A stretch of 39,502 nucleotides of DNA from Patescibacteria group bacterium (GTDB lineage: Bacteria; Patescibacteriota; Minisyncoccia; JAHIHE01; JAGLIN01). The stretch lies in the NCBI GenBank assembly GCA_034659355.1, contig JAYEHC010000045.1:1-39502 (forward strand), in the 5' to 3' direction. Below are positions 11,692 to 39,502 of the stretch, in pieces. The position numbers and the translations under genes are program-made. How positions within the stretch are numbered: position 1 is the first letter of the stretch; every line of letters begins with the position of its first letter. Under the pieces are notes generated by a model, which was not told the origin of the DNA, made no database searches, and worked only from the letters and a program-made list of their open reading frames with translations.

Positions 11692-11892
11692 GTCATTCTG
11701 AACTTGGTTTAGAATCTACTTTCTTTTATATCTGACTAAATCTACAAATCACTGAACTTTTGAATAAATTGAAAATGCAACAATTATGTTAATAAAAGGA
11801 TGATTGAGTTTGTTCTGTAAATGAAAGTCTAGTGTAAATAGGATAAGTCAAAATCTAAGATACGAAAGATTCTGAAACAAGTTCAGAATGAC
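11692..11892. repeat. family C MITE (about 200 bp, GTCATTCTGAAC...GTTCAGAATGAC)
   Basis: The termini match 24702 and 34726. The interior is homologous in inverted orientation. Lies between rplB and rpsS. Confidence 0.88.
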
Positions 11893-11921
11893 AGTTGATA
11901 GCTTAAATATAAATAACCATT

Positions 11922-12212
11922 ATGTCAAGATCGCTAAAAAAAGGTCCTTATGTGGACGAAAAACTTCTTAAAAAAGTCAAAAATTTGAAAGTCGGTGATA
12001 AAACCGTAATTAAAACTTGGGCAAGAAATTCTACAATATCACCGGAAATGGTTGGGTTTGCTTTTGGAGTGCATAATGGAAAGACGCATATTGAAGTTTC
12101 TATTTCTGAAGATATGGTCGGACATAAACTTGGCGAGTTTTCTCCAACAAAAAAGTTTATCAGACACGGAGGTAAAATGCAGAAGGATATAGAGAATAAA
12201 GCGGGGAAGTAG
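11922..12212 (+). CDS. rpsS: 30S ribosomal protein S19
   Basis: [12 protein letters not shown]...VHNGK...[10 protein letters not shown] matches S19. Confidence 0.97.
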
Positions 12213-12273
12213 TATAAACATATTGAAATTCATAATTACTGAAAAATAATATTATATATTTAAATGAATAACT

Positions 12274-12819
12274 ATGGAAGTTAAAGCGCATCTGAATCGT
12301 TTGAGAATATCGCCAAGAAAAGTAAGATTGGTCGCTGGTTTAGTGAGGAAGATGGATGTTGATGAAGCGAGAAAACAACTTGAATTTTTAAATAAAAAGC
12401 CGACAGATTTGTTATTAAAATTAATAAATTCAGCGGTTGCCAATGCAAGGAACAATTTTGATTTAGATGGAGATAATTTATATATTTCAGAGATACTTAT
12501 TAATGAAGGTCAGACGATGAAAAGATGGAGACCGAGAGCGATGGGAAGAGCTGCGAGAATAAATAAAAGAACATGTTGCGTGACGGTTGTTTTAGATGAA
12601 ATGATAAAGAAAGCGGATAAAGCGAAAAATGAGAAAACAGAAAAGGTGGAAACTTCAGAAAATAAAAACGAAAAAGTTGACGATATTAAAATGACAGGTA
12701 ATACTGAGGATACTGAAGCAGAAAAAACTTTAGAAAAAGGTGAGGTAAAGGATAAAGTAAAAGAAAATAATAAAGAAGTTAAAAAGATGGAAGATAAGAA
12801 TAACAAAAGTGGTAAATAG
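12274..12819 (+). CDS. rplV: 50S ribosomal protein L22 with Lys/Glu-rich C-terminal extension
   Basis: ISPRKVRLVAGLVR...MKRWRPRAMGRAARINKRT matches L22. Confidence 0.95.
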   Translation: MEVKAHLNRLRISPRKVRLVAGLVRKMDVDEARKQLEFLNKKPTDLLLKLINSAVANARNNFDLDGDNLYISEILINEGQTMKRWRPRAMGRAARINKRTCCVTVVLDEMIKKADKAKNEKTEKVETSENKNEKVDDIKMTGNTEDTEAEKTLEKGEVKDKVKENNKEVKKMEDKNNKSGK

Positions 12820-12836
12820 CAAAGCAAGCGGCAATA

Positions 12837-12872
12837 GTGAATTCCTCCCGAATTTACTTTGGGGGGAATGAC
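12837..12872. repeat. 36-nt solo hairpin unit
   Basis: GTGAATTCCTCCCGAATTTACTTTGGGGGGAATGAC downstream of rplV. Confidence 0.8.
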
Positions 12873-12911
12873 AAATTGCAGTTGTGTGTAAATAAAATGT
12901 AAAATAATAAA

Positions 12912-12936
12912 GGTTCTGAAACAAGTTCAGAACGAC
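12912..12936. repeat. family C solo right end
   Basis: GGTTCTGAAACAAGTTCAGAACGAC just upstream of rpsC. Confidence 0.7.
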
Positions 12937-12963
12937 AAGAGTAAAATGTTAAAATGCAGCAAT

Positions 12964-13611
12964 ATGGGAAAAAAAATAAATCCATTTTTATATAGGCTAG
13001 GTATTATCAGAGATTGGAAGTCAAGGTGGTTTAGCGATAAAAGATACAGCGAATATTTAAGAAATGATATTGAATTGCGCGAGTTTTTAAAAGAAAAATT
13101 GAAGAAGGCGGCGGTTGAAGATATTATTATTGAAAGATCGTCAAACAATGTGACTGTCAATATTCATTCTGCCAGACCGGGAATTATAATTGGAAGAGGG
13201 GGAGCGGACGCGGAAGAATTAAGAAAAGAAATCGCAAAAAAGATAAAAGAAAAAATTGAAGTCAAGGTTAATATAATTGAAGTAAGAAATTTTGAAGCGA
13301 GCGCAAAATTAATCGCGCAATCAATAGCCGAACAGCTTGAAAGAAGAATTCCGTTTAGAAGAACTATAAAAAAAGCGATTGAAAGGACGATGCAAAATAA
13401 GCAAGTAGAGGGAATAAAAGTGGCTGTTGCCGGAAGACTGGACGGAGCTGAAATGGCAAGAACCGAATGGTTGAGCGATGGAAAAATTCCACTGCAAACC
13501 CTAAGAGCTGATATTGATTTTGCAAAGTTTAATGCTCACACCACTTACGGAGTCGTTGGAATAAAAGTTTGGATATATAAAGGAGAGGTGTTTGAGGAGA
13601 AGAGGTCGTAG
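12964..13611 (+). CDS. rpsC: 30S ribosomal protein S3
   Basis: MGKKINPFLYRLGI..W.SRWF plus the KH-domain GIIIGRGG motif. Start refined to the ATG at 12964. Confidence 0.95.
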   Translation: MGKKINPFLYRLGIIRDWKSRWFSDKRYSEYLRNDIELREFLKEKLKKAAVEDIIIERSSNNVTVNIHSARPGIIIGRGGADAEELRKEIAKKIKEKIEVKVNIIEVRNFEASAKLIAQSIAEQLERRIPFRRTIKKAIERTMQNKQVEGIKVAVAGRLDGAEMARTEWLSDGKIPLQTLRADIDFAKFNAHTTYGVVGIKVWIYKGEVFEEKRS

Positions 13612-13642
13612 TTTTAAACTTTATAAACTTTAAACTCAAATT

Positions 13643-14050
13643 ATGTTGATGCCCAAAAAGGTAAAACACAGGAAGATGATGAAAGGGAGAATGCGCGGAA
13701 AAGCGCAGAGAGGAAATGTTATCTCTTTTGGCTCTTTTGCTATGAAATCGTTGGAAACATCATGGGTGACAAGTCGTCAAATTGAAGCGGCAAGGCGGGC
13801 AATGACCAGATATGTGCAGAGAGGCGGGAAGATTTGGATTAGGATATTTCCAGACAAACCGATTACCAAGAAACCAGCCGAAGTTCCGATGGGAAGCGGA
13901 AAGGGAAGTCTAGATCATTTTTCAGCGGTGGTAAAACCAGGCAGAATAATTTTTGAGATGGACGGGATAGAAAAAGATATGGCGAAAGAAGCGATGCGAA
14001 GAGCCAGCCATAAACTTCCAGTAAAAGTAAAGTTTATTGTTAAAGAATAA
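13643..14050 (+). CDS. rplP: 50S ribosomal protein L16
   Basis: [11 protein letters not shown]...[13 protein letters not shown]...PMGSGKG matches L16. Confidence 0.97.
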
Positions 14051-14053
14051 TTA

Positions 14054-14128
14054 AAATCATATAAACATTTAAACTTGTGAATATAAGATATGATTATATG
14101 TTTAAATGCTTATATGCTTAAATGATTT
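14054..14128. repeat. AT-rich intergenic palindrome sharing the CATATAAACATTTAAAC module
   Basis: The same 17-mer recurs at about 17470. Its inverted partner GATTATATGTTTAAATGC is present. Confidence 0.6.
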
Positions 14129-14131
14129 ATT

Positions 14132-14332
14132 ATGAAAGCAAAAGAAATTAGACAACAATCCGATAAGCAGTTGCAGAATTTAATAAGAGAAAATAAAGAG
14201 AAACTGAAAAAGTTAAGATTTTCGCTTTCTAACAGGCAATTGAAAGATTATAGCGCGATAAATCAAACAAAGAAAATTATTGCCAGAGCAAAAACGATTT
14301 TAAAAGAAAGGATTTTGAAAGCAGATAACTAA
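14132..14332 (+). CDS. rpmC: 50S ribosomal protein L29
   Basis: 66-aa ORF in the conserved position between L16 and S17. KAKEIRQQSDKQL...LRF is L29-like. Confidence 0.9.
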   Translation: MKAKEIRQQSDKQLQNLIRENKEKLKKLRFSLSNRQLKDYSAINQTKKIIARAKTILKERILKADN

Positions 14333-14352
14333 TTTGAAAAGTAATTATATAT

Positions 14353-14622
14353 ATGAATAAAGAAAATAATAAAGAAACTAAAAGCGTGAAGAAAGGCAAA
14401 GTCGGGATTGTTGTGAGTGATAAAATGGATAAAACGGTTGTAGTGAAAATTGATCGGTTGAAAATGCACGCTAAATATAAGAAAAAATATAAAGTAAGCA
14501 AGAAATACAAAGCGCATGACGCGGGGAATGAATTTAAGATTGGAGATAAAGTTGAGATTATGGAAGTTAAGCCGATGAGCAAGGAGAAGAAGTGGGTGGC
14601 GAGGAGAGTTGAAAGTTTATAA
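14353..14622 (+). CDS. rpsQ: 30S ribosomal protein S17
   Basis: GIVVSDKMDKTVVVKIDR...HKKY...HD..N....GD.V.I.E..P.SK matches S17. Confidence 0.95.
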   Translation: MNKENNKETKSVKKGKVGIVVSDKMDKTVVVKIDRLKMHAKYKKKYKVSKKYKAHDAGNEFKIGDKVEIMEVKPMSKEKKWVARRVESL

Positions 14623-14672
14623 AAGAGAAGCAGAGAGTTTATAAAGTTGTAAAGTTGTAAAGAATGCTCTCT

Positions 14673-15113
14673 GTCATTCCCGCGTAGGCGGGAATCCATT
14701 GATACATTAAACTACATTTAAAAAAACAAAAGCAATAATTTTTTATGAAGCAATGTTATCTTTATATTTTAGCAAGTATAAAAAATGGCACTTTATATAT
14801 AGGAGTAACAAATAATTTACTAAGAAGAGTGCTTGAGCATAAAGATGATCTTGTTGACGGATTCACAAAAAAATACAAAGTTCATAAACTTGTTTGTTAT
14901 GAAGAAATTGATGATATTAAAGTTGCTATCCAAAGAGAAAAGCAAATTAAAAAATGGGAAAGGCAATGGAAGATAAATTTGATTGAAAAGAACAATCCCG
15001 AATGGAAAGATTTATATTACGATTTGCTTGACCAAAGTTAAATTTAGCAAAAGATTAGTGAAAATAATATAGTTGAGTGGTAATAATGGATTCCTGCCTA
15101 CGCGGGAATGACA
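14673..15113. mobile_element. 441-bp element with hairpin terminal inverted repeats carrying the GIY-YIG gene
   Basis: The left end is GTCATTCCCGCGTAGGCGGGAATCCATT. The reverse complement of the right end differs at 1 of 28 nt. The termini are the same as the family A MITEs. The subterminal AAAAGATTAG is shared with the MITE at 24317. Confidence 0.75.
14745..15041 (+). CDS. GIY-YIG nuclease family protein (short UPF0213/COG2827 type)
   Basis: YLYILAS..NGTLYIGVTNNLLRRVLEHK plus a downstream REKQIKKW motif. The 98 aa cover a catalytic domain only. Confidence 0.85.
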   Translation: MKQCYLYILASIKNGTLYIGVTNNLLRRVLEHKDDLVDGFTKKYKVHKLVCYEEIDDIKVAIQREKQIKKWERQWKINLIEKNNPEWKDLYYDLLDQS

Positions 15114-15226
15114 ATGCTGGAGGAAGATAAAAAGAGCAGTATGAAGAAATTAATAAGTACAATTATTGATATAGCAGTTAGACGATATATTTCTTATAAA
15201 AATAAGCAAAAGAATAATAAACAAAT

Positions 15227-15601
15227 ATGATTCAACAAGGAAGCAAACTTATCGTTGCGGACAATTCGGGGGCGAAATTGATTAAGTGCATTAAAGTTCT
15301 TGGCGGGACGAGAAGGCGCTATGCTTATGTTGGCGATGTGATTGTCGCGTCTGTGAAAGTGTCCGAGCCGAGAGGGCAGGTTAAGAAAAAAGAAGTTATT
15401 AAAGTTGTGATTGTCAGGCAGAAAAAAGCGTTAAGAAGAAAAGATGGATCATATATTCGTTTTGATGATAATGCTGCTGTGGTTGTTGACGACAAAGACA
15501 GGATAACACCGAGAGCGACTCGTGTTTTCGGACCGGTAGCGAGAGAATTGCGAGAAAAAGGTTTTATGAAAATAGTCTCATTGGCGCCGGAAGTATTATA
15601 G
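15227..15601 (+). CDS. rplN: 50S ribosomal protein L14
   Basis: [17 protein letters not shown]...RFDDNA matches L14. Confidence 0.98.
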
Positions 15602-35438: not shown

Positions 35439-35467
35439 TTGACAAAGAAAAAATAGCTTGATATACT
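35439..35467 (+). promoter_or_regulatory. sigma70-type promoter for the abiEi-abiEii operon
   Basis: TTGACA, 17 nt spacer, TATACT, ending about 20 nt before the abiEi ATG. Confidence 0.5.
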
Positions 35468-35486
35468 GATTGGGTAAACTACAAAT

Positions 35487-36119
35487 ATGTTGTCATTATC
35501 TAAACAGAAAATTCAACCTTTAGCGGTCGCGGATGTTCTGCAGGAAAAGGGGATAGCGGTTTTTACTCCGCAGGAATTTAGCCGCTTCTTTAATACTTCT
35601 CCGCGACAGACACGCTATTTTTTAGAGGCGTACACCAAACGGTCATTTTTAGTGCGTCTGAAAAAGAATTTATACGCGCTCAAAACAAAATTGCCGAGCG
35701 AGGAGATCATTGCTAACGCGCTTTATAAACCGTCATACTTGTCGCTGGAATATGTTTTGTCGCGCCATGGCATTATTCCGGAATCAACATATAGCATTAC
35801 CTCAATTACCACAAGAGCCACGGCTGATTTTTCTGTGTTAGGAAAAGAGTTTTTATATAGAAAAATAAAAAAGGCGGCCTACATTGGATATGTGCCGGAA
35901 AAAATTGACGGAAAAACAATTTTTATCGCCGAACCGGAAAAAGCTCTGACTGATTATTTATATTTTGTATCTCTGGGGCGAAAAACTTTGAACAATCGCA
36001 TTGATGTTCGCCGGCTTAATAAAAAAAAGGCGCTGGTATATGCTAAACTATACCAGCGGAAAAATTTAAAAGAGCTTATTGAGCAGGTATGGGCGATGGC
36101 GCCGACCGTAATTAAATAA
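35487..36119 (+). CDS. abiEi: AbiEi-family antitoxin/transcriptional regulator (type IV TA)
   Basis: 210-aa protein immediately upstream of an AbiEii gene, at a 12-nt gap. The size and the N-terminal wHTH-like segment fit AbiEi. Confidence 0.7.
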   Translation: MLSLSKQKIQPLAVADVLQEKGIAVFTPQEFSRFFNTSPRQTRYFLEAYTKRSFLVRLKKNLYALKTKLPSEEIIANALYKPSYLSLEYVLSRHGIIPESTYSITSITTRATADFSVLGKEFLYRKIKKAAYIGYVPEKIDGKTIFIAEPEKALTDYLYFVSLGRKTLNNRIDVRRLNKKKALVYAKLYQRKNLKELIEQVWAMAPTVIK

Positions 36120-36131
36120 TTTTTTTACTGT

Positions 36132-36854
36132 ATGCTTACCAATGAAACAATTATAAAATTAGCCGCAAAAATGCAGACTTCGGAACAAAATGTTCGGCGT
36201 GAATATTTTCAACATTTATTTTTGTCTTTGTTCTACAAGCAAGACGGAGCGGACAAAGTGTTTTTCAAAGGCGGTACCGCCTTGCGCCTTATTTATAACA
36301 GCCCGCGCTTTTCCGAAGATCTGGATTTTAATTCGCCTTTAGCCGATGTCCATAGCATTGAAAATGCTATCGTTAACACCCTTGTTGAAGTACAAAAGGG
36401 CGGGGTAGAAACGGAACTTGACGAGGCAAAAAAAACAAGCGGCGGTTATCTTTCAACGATGCGATTTATTGGTATGGGTCGCGCCGTTCCTATCCGGATA
36501 GAAATATCATTCCGCGATCGCAAGAAAAAAGGCGAGGCGGTTTTTATCGCCAGCGATATGTTTCCGGATTATACAATTGTACAGTTAGTCAGCGAGCAGC
36601 TTATACAGGGTAAGGTTGACGCTTTGCTTGACCGCAAGAAACCGCGCGATTTTTACGACTTTTATTTTCTGATGCGCCGCAACCTGCTTCCGGAAAAAGA
36701 TAAAGGCGATGTCTTACGGCAAGTTTTTGAAGCCTTGAAGAAAACTGATATTAATTTTGACAGTGAGTTAAAAGAATTTCTTCCTAAAAGCCATCACATG
36801 ATCGTGAAAGATTTTAAGACAACTTTAAAAAGAGAGATAGAGAGGTTTATATAA
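36132..36854 (+). CDS. abiEii: AbiEii/AbiGii-family nucleotidyltransferase toxin (DUF1814)
   Basis: Hallmark FFKGGTALRLIYNSPRFSEDLDF motif, plus the downstream KPRDFYD motif. Confidence 0.85.
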   Translation: MLTNETIIKLAAKMQTSEQNVRREYFQHLFLSLFYKQDGADKVFFKGGTALRLIYNSPRFSEDLDFNSPLADVHSIENAIVNTLVEVQKGGVETELDEAKKTSGGYLSTMRFIGMGRAVPIRIEISFRDRKKKGEAVFIASDMFPDYTIVQLVSEQLIQGKVDALLDRKKPRDFYDFYFLMRRNLLPEKDKGDVLRQVFEALKKTDINFDSELKEFLPKSHHMIVKDFKTTLKREIERFI

Positions 36855-36901: not shown

Positions 36902-38308
36902 ATGCCAAAATTAAAAGACATTCCAAAAGTAGACAGACCAAGGGAAAGGTTTTTGAAAAAAGGTTCAGATGCGCTTTCTAAAAGCGAGCTTTTGGCTGTT
37001 CTTATCAGCAGCGGCATCAGGGGTAAAAATGTCAAAAAAATTTCTGAGCAGATCATCAGAAAATTTGGTGATAAATTTTTGGATTTGACTGTTGAGGATT
37101 TGCTTGGAGTTTCCGGAATAGGGGAGGCAAAGGCGCTTCAAATTGTTTCAGCTATCGCTCTGACGAAAAGATTTTATGATGAAAAAAATCCGAAAGAAAA
37201 TCTCGTCTTATCAGCGAAAGACGCTATTTTTTTAAATTCCGATTTAAAAGAAAAGAAAAAAGAATATTTGGTCTGCTTGTATCTAAACGCCAGGAATGTT
37301 TTATTGAAAAAAGAAATTGTTTCAATCGGAACTCTTGACAAAGGGATAGTCCACCCGAGAGAAATTTTCGCGCCAGCTTTAGAATTGAGATCGGCTGGCA
37401 TCATTCTGGTGCATAATCACCCATCAGGCGATCCGTCTCCGAGCGAACAAGATAGGGAAGTTTTTGACAGAATTATTGAAGCGGGCAAGATAATAGGAGT
37501 CAATGTCATTGATTTTATTATTATCGCCGGCAATGAGAATTACAGTTTTTTGGGAAGTTTGCAGGGAGAAGATAAAAACGATCTTTATATTTCAAATGGC
37601 ATCCAGCCCTCGCTTTTTGATCTTTTGATGGACAAGAAAGCGGAATATGAACCTGAGCAGCAAAAAACAAAAAATATAAGGATTATAGATTTATTCGCAG
37701 GAATCGGCGGGATAAAAATCGGCTTTGAAAACGCCGGATTTGAATGTGTTTTTTCTAATGATTTTGACAAGAACTGCAAAGTTACATACGATTTTAATTT
37801 TGCGAGAAAGCAGAAATCGCTGATCTGCGCCGACATTGCCGAGGTTTCGTTAGATTTAATTCCGGACTTTGAAGTGCTCACAGGAGGATTCCCGTGCCAG
37901 CCGTTTTCAATAGCGGGATACCGCAAAGGATTTTCAGACGAGGGCAGGGGAGACTTATTTTTTGAAATTATAAGAATATTAAAAGACAAAAAGCCGGCAG
38001 CTTTTCTGCTTGAAAATGTAAAAAATCTTAAAACTCACGACAATGGAAAAACACTGCGGATTATTTATAAAGAGCTTCAAAAATTAGGATACCATATCGG
38101 TAGCAAGGTGCTTAACACTATGGAGCATGGAAACATCCCCCAGAACAGAGAGCGCATTTACATTGTCGGATTTTTAGACCAAGAAGCGTTTAATAGTTTT
38201 TCATTTCCGGAAAAAATCAAGCTGACAAAAACTATTCATGACTGCCTGGAGCCGGATGCCGATGAAAAATATTATTATAAACGGCAAGCCTCTTTATGGA
38301 AAATTTAA
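36902..38308 (+). CDS. RadC-like JAB/MPN domain fused to the N-terminal half (motifs I-VIII) of a C5-cytosine DNA methyltransferase
   Basis: RadC part: PRERFLKKG, HhH GIGEAKA, and JAMM HNHPSGDPSPSEQD. MTase part: DLFAGIGG (I), GGFPCQPFS (IV), LLENVKNL (VI), QNRERIYIVGF (VIII). The ORF ends at an in-frame TAA. Confidence 0.8.
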   Translation: MPKLKDIPKVDRPRERFLKKGSDALSKSELLAVLISSGIRGKNVKKISEQIIRKFGDKFLDLTVEDLLGVSGIGEAKALQIVSAIALTKRFYDEKNPKENLVLSAKDAIFLNSDLKEKKKEYLVCLYLNARNVLLKKEIVSIGTLDKGIVHPREIFAPALELRSAGIILVHNHPSGDPSPSEQDREVFDRIIEAGKIIGVNVIDFIIIAGNENYSFLGSLQGEDKNDLYISNGIQPSLFDLLMDKKAEYEPEQQKTKNIRIIDLFAGIGGIKIGFENAGFECVFSNDFDKNCKVTYDFNFARKQKSLICADIAEVSLDLIPDFEVLTGGFPCQPFSIAGYRKGFSDEGRGDLFFEIIRILKDKKPAAFLLENVKNLKTHDNGKTLRIIYKELQKLGYHIGSKVLNTMEHGNIPQNRERIYIVGFLDQEAFNSFSFPEKIKLTKTIHDCLEPDADEKYYYKRQASLWKI

Positions 38309-38407
38309 AAAAGAAATCACTAAAAAAATACGGTTTACCAATGGAGAAGAAAATATGTAAGAGAAAATAAGAATGGTGTTTGCCTTACTTTAACAGCAAC
38401 TTATTAA
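38309..38407 (+). pseudogene. remnant of the m5C methyltransferase variable-region entry segment, same frame, cut by TAA codons
   Basis: The ORF frame continues as KRNH*KNTVYQWRRKYVRENKNGVCLTLTATY*. The QWRR...TLTA block is typical of Dcm-type enzymes. Motifs IX and X are absent downstream. Confidence 0.7.
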
Positions 38408-38413
38408 ATTACT

Positions 38414-39181
38414 ATGGAAGGAAATAAGCATAAAAATTATGAAATATTAAACTTGATAGGCTATGGTCTCTCAAAATTTAATGATGATTTTATAAGAGAA
38501 TTTGGATTTTCAACAAAAACAGCTTTTTATAATTTTTGTGTTGAAAATAAAATTGCAGAAACAGTCGGCACTGTAAAAAATAGAATGGATTTATTCGATC
38601 ATTTTTTTCCAGAAAACGGAAGGAAGGGTTGGTGGCAAAAAGGAGATGCCTATATTCATAGAAAGATATTGATTGATAGTTTATTTGGTGATGAAAATGC
38701 AAAGAGCTATGCAAATATAGTGAAATTACATATGAAAGAAGAATTTCATGTGAAAAGCATTGAATATCAAGCAAAACCAATTATTAAAACTAGATTTAAA
38801 AAACTACAAGAAACAGGATTAGAAGCAGAATTATTTTTTATGAATAATTACAACTCAATAGATATTTTTCAAAATGGATTACTGGAAGATGCCAGATTGT
38901 ATGGAGATGGGTACGATTTTCAAATAAGTGTAAATGAACAATCTTATCTAGCAGAAATAAAAGGAATAAGAGCAAAAAAAGGAAAATTTAGACTTACTGA
39001 AAATGAATATCAAAAAGCATTAGAATATAAAAATGACTATATTATAACTTTAATTTTAAATCTAAATGAAATTCCTAGAATTCTTACAATTGAAGATCCT
39101 ATTAAAAATCTAAAATTTGAAGAGAGATTTATAAAATCCAAAACTACAAAAGAATATCATTTAACCAAAGCAATATGTTAA
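38414..39181 (+). CDS. DUF3883-like PD-(D/E)xK restriction-endonuclease-fold protein
   Basis: The C-terminal GDGYDFQI...YLAEIKGIR...FRLTENEYQKA pattern fits D...E-x-K with the DUF3883 layout. Very AT-rich compared with the upstream genes. Confidence 0.55.
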   Translation: MEGNKHKNYEILNLIGYGLSKFNDDFIREFGFSTKTAFYNFCVENKIAETVGTVKNRMDLFDHFFPENGRKGWWQKGDAYIHRKILIDSLFGDENAKSYANIVKLHMKEEFHVKSIEYQAKPIIKTRFKKLQETGLEAELFFMNNYNSIDIFQNGLLEDARLYGDGYDFQISVNEQSYLAEIKGIRAKKGKFRLTENEYQKALEYKNDYIITLILNLNEIPRILTIEDPIKNLKFEERFIKSKTTKEYHLTKAIC

Positions 39182-39502
39182 ATTCAAAAGAGAAAATAAA
39201 AAAATTTACTTCAATTTTAAATAAAGAAGAGGCTTCTTATGCTGATAGTTTTAATTCTCATATTAATATAGCTGGAGGAAATTGTGATTATAAATTTTTA
39301 AAAAAATTAAATTCTGAAAAAGATATTGAATATTGGGTTGATAAATTAAAAAGCAGAATTGTTATGCATGAAGATGACGATATGAGGATCTCCCGGACGT
39401 TGTGGGTATCCCCGAGCAGCGTAATAGATATCATCAGAAAGTTATCGATTTTATTGATGGTTTGCAGCGTAAAAACCATGACAATGAAGGGGATGACGCT
39501 GG
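39175..39502 (+). CDS. hypothetical protein, 3' partial (runs off the window)
   Basis: The ATG overlaps the stop of the previous gene (ATGTTAA). The frame stays open to the window end and is absent from the ORF track because it has no stop. Composition changes abruptly at about 39380. Confidence 0.35.
   Translation, partial: MLNSKEKIKKFTSILNKEEASYADSFNSHINIAGGNCDYKFLKKLNSEKDIEYWVDKLKSRIVMHEDDDMRISRTLWVSPSSVIDIIRKLSILLMVCSVKTMTMKGMTL

Follow-up and report, generated by a model that had tools for sequence, protein, structure and literature searches.

A RadC-cytosine methylase fusion gene in a Patescibacteria chromosome: probable remnant of a restriction-modification system interrupted by a NOV_C nuclease cassette

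What has become of a DNA methylase that is joined to a complete RadC protein and then runs into three TAA codons? The question is raised by positions 36902 to 38413 of a 39,502-nucleotide (nt) stretch of DNA from a Patescibacteria group bacterium (contig JAYEHC010000045.1), referred to here as the window, in which an open reading frame (ORF) couples RadC to the N-terminal part of a cytosine-5 (m5C) methyltransferase (MTase). An earlier interpretation made from the letters alone, the sequence-only reading, took the MTase half to be cut by three in-frame TAA codons and allowed for three explanations: a decaying restriction-modification (R-M) methylase fused to RadC, a split MTase, or a locus where stop suppression matters. 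Comparison with intact relatives upholds the first of these and neither of the others. The gene, designated radC::dcm', is very probably the remnant of an R-M methylase whose 3' end and partner genes have been replaced by a recurrent two-gene cassette, which consists of a nuclease gene of the NOV_C (DUF3883) family and a small ORF.

In the model that is proposed, the ancestral state would have been a portable defence module, abiEi-abiEii-radC::dcm-R(NgoFVII-type)-vsr, where R is the restriction endonuclease. The DNA from the middle of the target-recognition region onward would then have been replaced by a cassette of NOV_C and an ORF of ~82 amino acids (aa), which would have removed the remainder of the target-recognition domain (TRD) together with motifs IX and X and the endonuclease; vsr, to the extent that the contig reveals it, would have gone too. 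Two single-A homopolymer indels, arising afterwards or simultaneously, would have shifted the frame of the remnant, such that the ORF now stops at the out-of-frame TAA at 38306. The cassette would have spread by recombination through flanking homology in the methylase (M) and R genes; drive by its own nuclease is conceivable.

The fused methylase and its intact relatives

The 468-aa ORF does contain, as the sequence-only reading had it, a complete RadC (helix-hairpin-helix, HhH, plus JAB) joined to MTase motifs I, IV, VI and VIII. Pfam recognizes the RadC JAB domain with an E-value of 2e-35 and UPF0758_N with an E-value of 1e-20; the HhH/UPF0758_N region is followed by a JAB domain whose JAMM residues, E...HxH(x7)S(xx)D, are invariant in 24 aligned fusions, and the RadC half of the intact homologue P0002 exceeds the NCBIfam RadC equivalog cut-off. 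Beyond a linker, DNA_methylase (PF00145) is matched at aa 259-462 with an E-value of 2.5e-69, a match that covers motifs I-VIII, and motifs I (FAGIGG), IV (GFPCQPFS), VI (ENV) and VIII (QNRER) can be read directly. Homology to P0002 stops at residue 499 of its 571. As had also been noticed beforehand, the rest is missing: tblastn with the intact homologue over the whole window found no further part of the TRD and neither motif IX (RE..R.QGFP) nor motif X (GNSV). Because motifs IX and X and most of the TRD are missing, the established structure of m5C MTases predicts that the 468-aa product should be unable to methylate DNA. The cognate restriction endonuclease (RE) is absent from the window as well, since tblastn with the RE of the intact locus L001 gave no match; the contig ends at 39502.

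The linker between the two halves carries a motif, Y(I/V)xDGxQxSLFDLL, that is kept in both of the MTase types found fused to RadC in the 24-fusion alignment. A methionine located here (in MDKKAEYEP) had been suggested as the ancestral start of the MTase. However, the residue is I, V, T or E in the other fusions. Because it lies inside the part of the linker motif (SLFDLLxD) that is common even to fusions with a different MTase type, this methionine is not a relic start.

Does the fusion exist elsewhere as one intact polypeptide? A search of 5.8 billion proteins gave 7965 matches, and the figures that follow rest on the best 120 of these, the window's own protein among them. All 120 have UPF0758_N, RadC and DNA_methylase in one chain. 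Of these chains, 114 measure 552-597 aa; the window's own protein is one of the six others, which have 331-515 aa. The single polypeptides found elsewhere comprise at least 114 protein clusters, and separate radC and dcm genes at homologous loci, the arrangement that would have spoken for a fusion private to the window, were found in none of the 120. The named sources among the matches listed are mostly lineages of the candidate phyla radiation (CPR; Pacebacteria, Gribaldobacteria, Parcubacteria and Moranbacteria), and the database labels are either 'DNA repair protein RadC' or 'DNA (cytosine-5)-methyltransferase 1'. A search of 50%-identity representatives gave few full-length fusions and little beyond the main protein search. 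When GTDB representative genomes were scanned with the fusion alignment, generic Dcm motifs dominated and two fusions were returned; this set was kept as an MTase-anchored control sample. Literature searches found no paper on a RadC-Dcm fusion. The fusion is genuine and widespread, and is annotated in databases though apparently undescribed.

The intact relatives also place the fusion in an operon. In L001 and L002, the closest intact loci among the matches listed (whose fusion is P0002, with 93% aa and 88% nt identity to the window), the gene order is AbiEi-AbiEii-RadC::Dcm-RE_NgoFVII_C(372 aa)-Vsr, and the L001 block sits on an element with ParA, a relaxase-like protein, a TrwB-type coupling protein and an integrase. 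In Moranbacteria, Paceibacterota and Saccharibacteria, a second MTase type is joined to this RadC and linker, and its partner genes are RE_HpaII and Vsr. The MTase half of intact relatives has all ten Dcm motifs, and their RE is identified as RE_NgoFVII_C or RE_HpaII by Pfam and matches a PADLOC type II REase model (E 3e-103). In addition, M and R abut or overlap at intact loci (L011, L014, L015). RadC::Dcm is the M subunit of type II R-M-Vsr operons with at least two endonuclease families, NgoFVII-type and HpaII-type. The NgoFVII-type site is GCSGC.

The intact relatives share with type II m5C R-M systems that include Vsr the order M-R-Vsr and the abutting of M and R, but their M subunit differs by a complete N-terminal RadC; in the window, M is truncated and R and Vsr are not present. 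With the RadC/YicR family they share the same two-domain RadC and its invariant JAMM residues and, as in the fusions already described, this RadC is coupled to an enzyme that processes DNA, in a mobile or defence setting. RadC fusions to ArdC, a DnaG-type primase and a DinG/Rad3 helicase are described in the available portions of Iyer et al. 2011 (PMC3239186) and Iyer et al. 2017 (PMC5512222). Compared with the fusions described there, the partner here is instead an m5C MTase that forms the M subunit of an R-M-Vsr operon.

Several of the intact loci have further neighbours. At L084 (6001-10702), an HpaII-type RadC::Dcm, RE_HpaII and Vsr are followed by a CD-NTase and Cap15-like CBASS pair, and at L003 (5001-10491), the same three genes are followed by a HerA-like ATPase; these loci are small defence islands of CPR genomes. 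In L001, which comes from a Pacebacteria metagenome-assembled genome, the region 3' of the intact R-M-Vsr genes (11714-15578) carries a helix-turn-helix/M78 peptidase pair, a PycTM-like protein, a ThsB-TIR protein, a caspase-like peptidase and an integrase, and is a dense cargo region of defence and integrative and conjugative element (ICE) genes.

Two frameshifts and a junction

Nucleotide homology between the window and L001 extends from 35439 to about 38400, with 88% identity. The three TAAs are located where the sequence-only reading placed them, in one frame and with the ORF stopping at the first (Table 1), and the peptide KNTVYQWRRKYVRENKNGVCLTLTATY lies between the second and the third. 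However, the view that these codons cut the methylase gives way, upon alignment with L001, to a different picture: two homopolymer frameshifts and a deletion/insertion junction. Both indels fall within the last 130 nt of the homology. The first adds an A and the second removes one, and between approximately 38280 and 38328 the conserved protein, NGKPLYGKFKKEITKK, is read in the +1 frame. Because the two indels shift the frame over this segment, neither of the first two TAAs belongs to the ancestral frame; they are ordinary triplets that the first frameshift has exposed as stops, rather than nonsense substitutions.

The third TAA lies in the leader of the cassette. After ...ACAGCA (about 38398), L001 goes on with AATATGGGAACAGGCGGGCAT (NMGTGGH), whereas the window has CTTATTAAATTACT and then the ATG of the NOV_C gene. 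A TAA that is at most ~20 nt upstream of the NOV_C ATG, or that overlaps it, is present in 67 of 78 cassette loci. It had been remarked that the next ORF, at 38414, continues in the same frame. It does, but the shared frame is a coincidence because this ORF encodes an unrelated NOV_C nuclease. A likeness of the NOV_C N-terminus to MTase motif IX or to NMGTGGH, which appeared in MAFFT and tblastn extensions, was judged to be chance.

These results bear directly on stop suppression, in which the TAAs would be read through or reassigned to yield a longer protein. The presence of three stops of the same kind in one frame is what might suggest such recoding. However, read-through would give KRQASLWKI-x-KRNH-x, which is off the ancestral frame, given that the conserved peptide lies in the +1 frame, and motifs IX and X are not encoded downstream. 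Furthermore, TAA is a normal stop in the window: it is the commonest one, ending 23 of the 43 long ORFs, including those for EF-Tu, SecY and ArgRS. With two of the TAAs off the ancestral frame and the third in the cassette leader, the likelihood of recoding is practically nil.

The NOV_C cassette at other loci

The same interruption has been found elsewhere. In all three of the other truncated fusions that were looked up, the fusion is followed by a 255-266-aa NOV_C gene and an 82-aa ORF, and then by a remnant of a partner gene. Thus, P0039 (509 aa; L083, on an 808-kb contig) is followed by residues 261-368 of the RE, P0005 (513 aa; L086, on a 5-kb contig) by residues 58-135 of Vsr, and P0041 (515 aa; L088, which has the Proteobacteria-type neighbours Rho, GlnD and LptF/G) by residues 269-368 of the RE.

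Could the 468-aa protein nonetheless be the alpha subunit of a split methylase, with the TRD and motifs IX and X on a separate subunit? M.AquI is such a split enzyme, and its break lies in the variable region. The break in the window resembles it in falling between motif VIII and motif IX, again in the variable region, and motifs I-VIII are intact. However, no sequence coding for TRD/IX/X follows in the window or in the four homologous truncated loci (including L083, L086 and L088), so that the window is without a beta-subunit gene. In addition, the position of the break differs among loci, two frameshifts lie in the segment ahead of it, foreign DNA is present at the break, the partner endonuclease is truncated or absent at the same loci, and the intact relatives are single chains. 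A split enzyme is thus very improbable, and the break is better read as replacement by foreign DNA.

A more mundane possibility is an artefact, that is, homopolymer sequencing errors together with a chimeric assembly junction between MTase and NOV_C. Both indels do lie in A-runs, and 121 nt of contig remain beyond an unexplained change of sequence at 39381. However, truncated MTase, NOV_C and small ORF are found in the same layout in assemblies that are independent of one another and come from different samples and phyla; the window and L086 share a near-identical junction. Moreover, with both indels corrected the ORF would run no farther than the TAA at 38405, still without TRD, IX or X, and no methylase would be restored. 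An artefact is therefore decidedly unlikely.

To determine how often the cassette lies at such remnants, the flanks of 80 metagenomic cassette loci were screened with M, R, Vsr and RadC queries; 51 loci were informative on both sides. Remnants of this R-M family (M, R or Vsr) are present at 29 of the 51, in several phyla, and on both sides in 20, and the cassette is conserved at 66-89% aa across these loci. In the MTase-anchored GTDB sample, 10 loci pair the close MTase subfamily with an adjacent NgoFVII-type RE, and two of the 10, from Flavobacteriales (L013) and Edaphocola (L018), carry the cassette between M and R. It is present in none of the other 70 loci of that sample.

The least-decayed of the cassette loci suggest what the initial damage was. 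At these loci, M stays readable as far as motif X (...LYKQSGN, ...KQLNN, or ...LYMQAS and a stop) and ends at the cassette. R has an uninterrupted frame of 355-397 codons, with its first ~17-27 codons missing and mostly no start codon near its 5' end. Because the M frame ends at motif X and the R frame is without its first codons, the primary event would have cost M approximately its final 23 codons and R some 20 codons at its start, disabling both at once. Across the loci, the M ends form a graded series (after FQGF, ANFQ, PRECA, IRKL, HNVPIV, NMGM and LTAN), and at least some of them look like microhomology deletions. The junction of the window and L086 (LTAN, then F and a stop) is derivable from an L100-type junction (RECANFQ and a stop) via GCAAAT/GCTAAT.

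Beyond this R family, the RE next to the cassette at L146 (5000-6226) and L162 (1165-2442) is only 30-38% identical to the usual NgoFVII-type RE. The L146 cassette is 92% identical to that of L142, so the cassette also occurs beside a divergent RE lineage.

Has the cassette moved into these loci, or has it been inherited with them? The MTase remnants beside cassettes are usually nearest to intact alleles and not to one another. For the window remnant, the nearest intact allele is P0003 (89%) and the nearest cassette-bearing remnant is L086 (80%); other remnant-intact pairs (MTase aa identity) are L086-P0004 (93%), L127-L015 (93%), L168-L011 (89%), L088-P0042 (87%) and L083-P0043 (84%). Identities of NOV and RE are also discordant: 94% versus 72% for L127-L134, 81% versus 92% for L127-L114, and 92% versus 37% for L142-L146. 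Furthermore, the end of the window remnant is mosaic. At sites that distinguish L001 from the cassette-bearing L095, the window agrees with L001 at 11 and with L095 at 1 between 38289 and 38328, and with L001 at 7 and L095 at 11 between 38329 and 38400, a small sample; the switch of allegiance coincides with the A-run of the -1 frameshift. The final 72 nt of the remnant resemble a short donor arm that came in with the cassette.

Taken together, these data include features typical of homing: presence or absence of the cassette at a homologous site among close alleles (window versus L001, 88% nt; remnants, 84-93% aa) and, in small samples, discordance between cassette and flank and a co-converted flank. 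Because the phylogeny of the cassette disagrees with that of its flanks, the cassette appears to be a mobile element that recurrently disrupts the NgoFVII-type R-M family. The likeliest route would be repeated transfer into resident R-M alleles by recombination through the M and R arms.

A different explanation of the remnant starts from the state of the surviving gene. In this case, RadC plus a catalytically dead MTase N-domain, perhaps a scaffold that binds S-adenosylmethionine and DNA, would have outlasted the destruction of the R-M system as a functional protein. At each of four independent truncated loci (window, L083, L086 and L088), the ORF has stayed open over ~200 codons of the MTase. 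The ratio of nonsynonymous to synonymous substitution rates (dN/dS) between the window and L001 is 0.059 for MTase codons 259-459, about as low as the 0.044 of RadC, and there is no excess of window-specific aa changes (6, versus 8 specific to L001). In addition, the 119 nt after the first frameshift have 13 substitutions unique to the window versus 3 unique to L001. This excess was considered as a neutral-decay clock for continued use of the MTase, an argument that was dropped since the mosaic signal, an imported donor tract, explains the junction substitutions better. Moreover, RadC and most of the MTase have been lost at L089, L096 and L098, L097 retains only RadC aa 1-161, and the frame downstream of an N-terminal gene stays open for a while after a recent truncation. 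The low dN/dS of the MTase fits either a truncation that is recent relative to the 12% nt divergence or a RadC-plus-dead-MTase protein that is still used. Overall, a retained working protein is unlikely.

The reading of radC::dcm' as an R-M remnant overwritten by the cassette has points against it, among them the lack of relaxed selection in the MTase part 5' of the frameshift. R-M remnants were not found at 22 of the 51 informative loci; the cassette is not strictly tied to this target. Both frameshifts, lying in A-runs, could be sequencing errors. The loss of R and vsr from the window is inferred from the junction and the homologous loci, as the contig ends 121 nt past the cassette homology, and a C-terminal MTase fragment may be present elsewhere in the genome.

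What, then, is the cassette? In an AlphaFold (AF2) model (mean predicted local distance difference test score, 80), the NOV_C protein has a helical N-domain and a PD-(D/E)xK core. A fold search matches the C-domain with Hjc resolvases, the D212 nuclease and SPARDA nuclease domains; for the 135-aa helical N-domain, neither fold nor family searches gave a match. NOV_C homologues number more than 2000. Among the 119 listed besides the window's own protein, identities are 74-89% and lengths 242-327 aa, mostly 252-260 aa, and the sources include Thioploca, Sulfurovum and Cloacibacterium. In NCBIfam, neither NOV_C nor the small ORF nor the RE matched a family, and PADLOC matches NOV_C only with the C-terminus of TmtA. 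Literature searches found no description of the NOV_C plus small-ORF cassette. In IMG/VR viral contigs, the cassette is essentially absent (one weak partial match, 34% identity over residues 10-76), and plasmids yielded distant relatives only.

At most cassette loci, the small ORF begins ML and overlaps the NOV_C stop. There are two unrelated types of this partner, one acidic and ~80-90 aa long and the other a 4-Cys zinc ribbon of 68-73 aa; their exchange would be analogous to the partner swapping of toxin-antitoxin (TA) or immunity modules. The zinc-ribbon-like partner, with two CxxC pairs, is present at L146, L147, L150, L153, L154, L159, L169 and L132, mostly with the ATGTTAA-type overlap kept. 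At L174 (4826-8177) and L173 (4783-5163), which have the two most complete MTases, the cassette is without the usual small partner and is followed by unrelated ORFs of 123-126 aa; L174 additionally has ORFs of 293 and 678 aa and, farther on, a Vsr remnant.

The pair resembles type II TA systems in having two short overlapping genes (ATGTTAA), one for a strongly conserved nuclease and one for a variable partner; it differs in that no TA-family match was obtained except a weak one between the L083 small ORF and AbiEii (E 0.005, PADLOC). Free-standing homing endonuclease genes, such as seg and mob of the T-even phages, move by 'intronless homing'. Like them, the cassette is polymorphic for presence or absence between two conserved genes, is discordant with its flanks and has a short co-converted tract. 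However, it consists of a PD-(D/E)xK/NOV_C gene and a small partner ORF, has ragged junctions, is cellular rather than phage-borne, and its insertion destroys both neighbours, an R-M system.

DUF3883 is a recognised PD-(D/E)xK family (PMC3424549) and is the catalytic domain of YenY4I and McaZI, which are dependent on m5C or 5-hydroxymethylcytosine (PMC6765204). The cassette nuclease shares this domain with these enzymes and with the TmtA C-terminus of the Tiamat defence system. However, it differs from DUF3883 restriction enzymes in being without a PUA or DUF3427 sensor and without an ATPase; a search for a modified-base sensor (PUA, SRA or DUF3427) found Pfam NOV_C only, and the N-domain has no fold match. 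That the cassette nuclease depends on m5C is offered as a hypothesis.

Setting of the window and significance of the locus

The window is chromosomal. It carries genes for EF-Tu, a ribosomal-protein cluster, SecY and ArgRS, and the listed genes, from 157 to 39181, are on the + strand. GC skew is above 0 in all but one of the 1-kb bins over 1-39181, and the long ORFs are nearly all on the + strand, which fits a single leading-strand replichore segment. Upstream of 35439, the YbjQ side is unrelated to L001 in the alignment. The abiE-radC::dcm block moves as a unit, being located on an ICE-like element in L001 and on the chromosome beside ybjQ in the window. The AbiEi/AbiEii pair is under strong purifying selection (dN/dS versus L001 of 0.066 and 0.046, respectively).

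At the other end, the homology of the window's small ORF to its relatives ends at 39380-81, codon 70 of ~82. The 121-nt tail that follows removes the last ~12 codons of this ORF, and one of its frames reads EDLPDVVGIPEQRNRYHQKVIDFIDGLQRKNHDNEGDDA; it had no match in the fetched loci, in E. coli genomes or in plasmids. It reflects either a true rearrangement or a chimera at the end of the contig. Because this unrelated tail runs to the end of the contig, the right junction of the cassette is not interpretable.

Table 1. Features of the defence module, the methylase remnant and the cassette in the window
Feature	Positions	Strand	Basis or comparison
Left edge of module, shared with L001, including conserved abiEi promoter-like region (TTGACA ... 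TATACT)	35439..35486	+	blastn homology to L001 begins at 35439
abiEi, antitoxin/regulator of AbiE abortive-infection pair, intact	35487..36119	+	PADLOC AbiEi E 1e-38; gene order as in L001, L002
abiEii, nucleotidyltransferase toxin, intact	36132..36854	+	Pfam AbiEii E 9e-27
radC::dcm' ORF, 468 aa, ATG to TAA; full RadC and N-terminal two-thirds of m5C MTase, premature end	36902..38308	+	93% aa identity to intact 571-aa P0002
RadC part: UPF0758_N/HhH (aa 5-78) and JAB domain (aa 110-216), JAMM motif HNHPSGDPSPSEQD	36914..37549	+	Pfam
Fusion linker (aa 217-258) with conserved Y(I/V)xDGxQxSLFDLL motif	37550..37675	+	alignment of 24 fusions
MTase motifs I-VIII, ancestral frame retained	37676..38278	+	Pfam profile positions 1-207 of 324
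+1 frameshift: AAA in window, AA in L001 and L002	38279..38281	+	DNA alignment
First TAA, ends ORF, in out-of-frame segment	38306..38308	+	
Second TAA, in out-of-frame segment, overlaps start of A-run	38321..38323	+	
-1 frameshift, original frame restored: A7 in window, A8 in L001 and L002	38322..38328	+	DNA alignment
Last stretch of MTase remnant (YQWRRKYVRENKNGVCLTLTA), mosaic, nearer cassette-bearing L095 than L001	38329..38400	+	informative sites
Cassette leader with third TAA (38405-07), directly 5' of NOV_C ATG	38401..38413	+	MTase homology ends ~38398-38400
NOV_C/DUF3883 PD-(D/E)xK nuclease gene, 255 aa	38414..39181	+	Pfam NOV_C E 4e-15, domain C-terminal
Small partner ORF, start overlaps NOV_C stop (ATGTTAA)	39175..39381	+	49% identity to L083 82-aa ORF over 70 aa
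Tail of higher G+C to contig end	39382..39502	.	every cassette homology stops at 39380-81

The TAA-cut methylase is itself a case of ordinary pseudogenisation, and no exotic translation is needed to account for it. What is noteworthy instead is the agent of the damage, a conserved cassette of NOV_C and a small ORF that overwrites the M/R junction of one R-M family. These findings have led to a tentative hypothesis with two parts, which as a whole is somewhat more doubtful than probable. In the first, NOV_C and the small ORF would form a selfish, target-family-specific cassette that crosses phyla by replacing the M/R junction of NgoFVII-type m5C R-M systems, knocking out both enzymes in one step; the driver would be either homing-like gene conversion or an m5C-dependent nuclease that becomes established only where the cognate methylase has been destroyed. 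Separately, the fusion of RadC to the M subunit of m5C R-M-Vsr operons would tie RadC to the DNA transactions of cytosine methylation and deamination.

If the first part is true, the turnover of defence islands would involve a new participant, an element whose specific effect is to overwrite R-M systems, and the cassette may represent a novel type of homing or addiction module. For annotation, a 'RadC' or 'DNA methyltransferase' of ~470-515 aa that is followed by a DUF3883 gene indicates a broken R-M locus. As for RadC, its biochemical role has reportedly been disputed for decades ('RadC, a misleading name?'). That RadC is stably fused to an m5C methylase whose operon also encodes a T:G mismatch endonuclease provides a concrete and testable context in which to approach this role.

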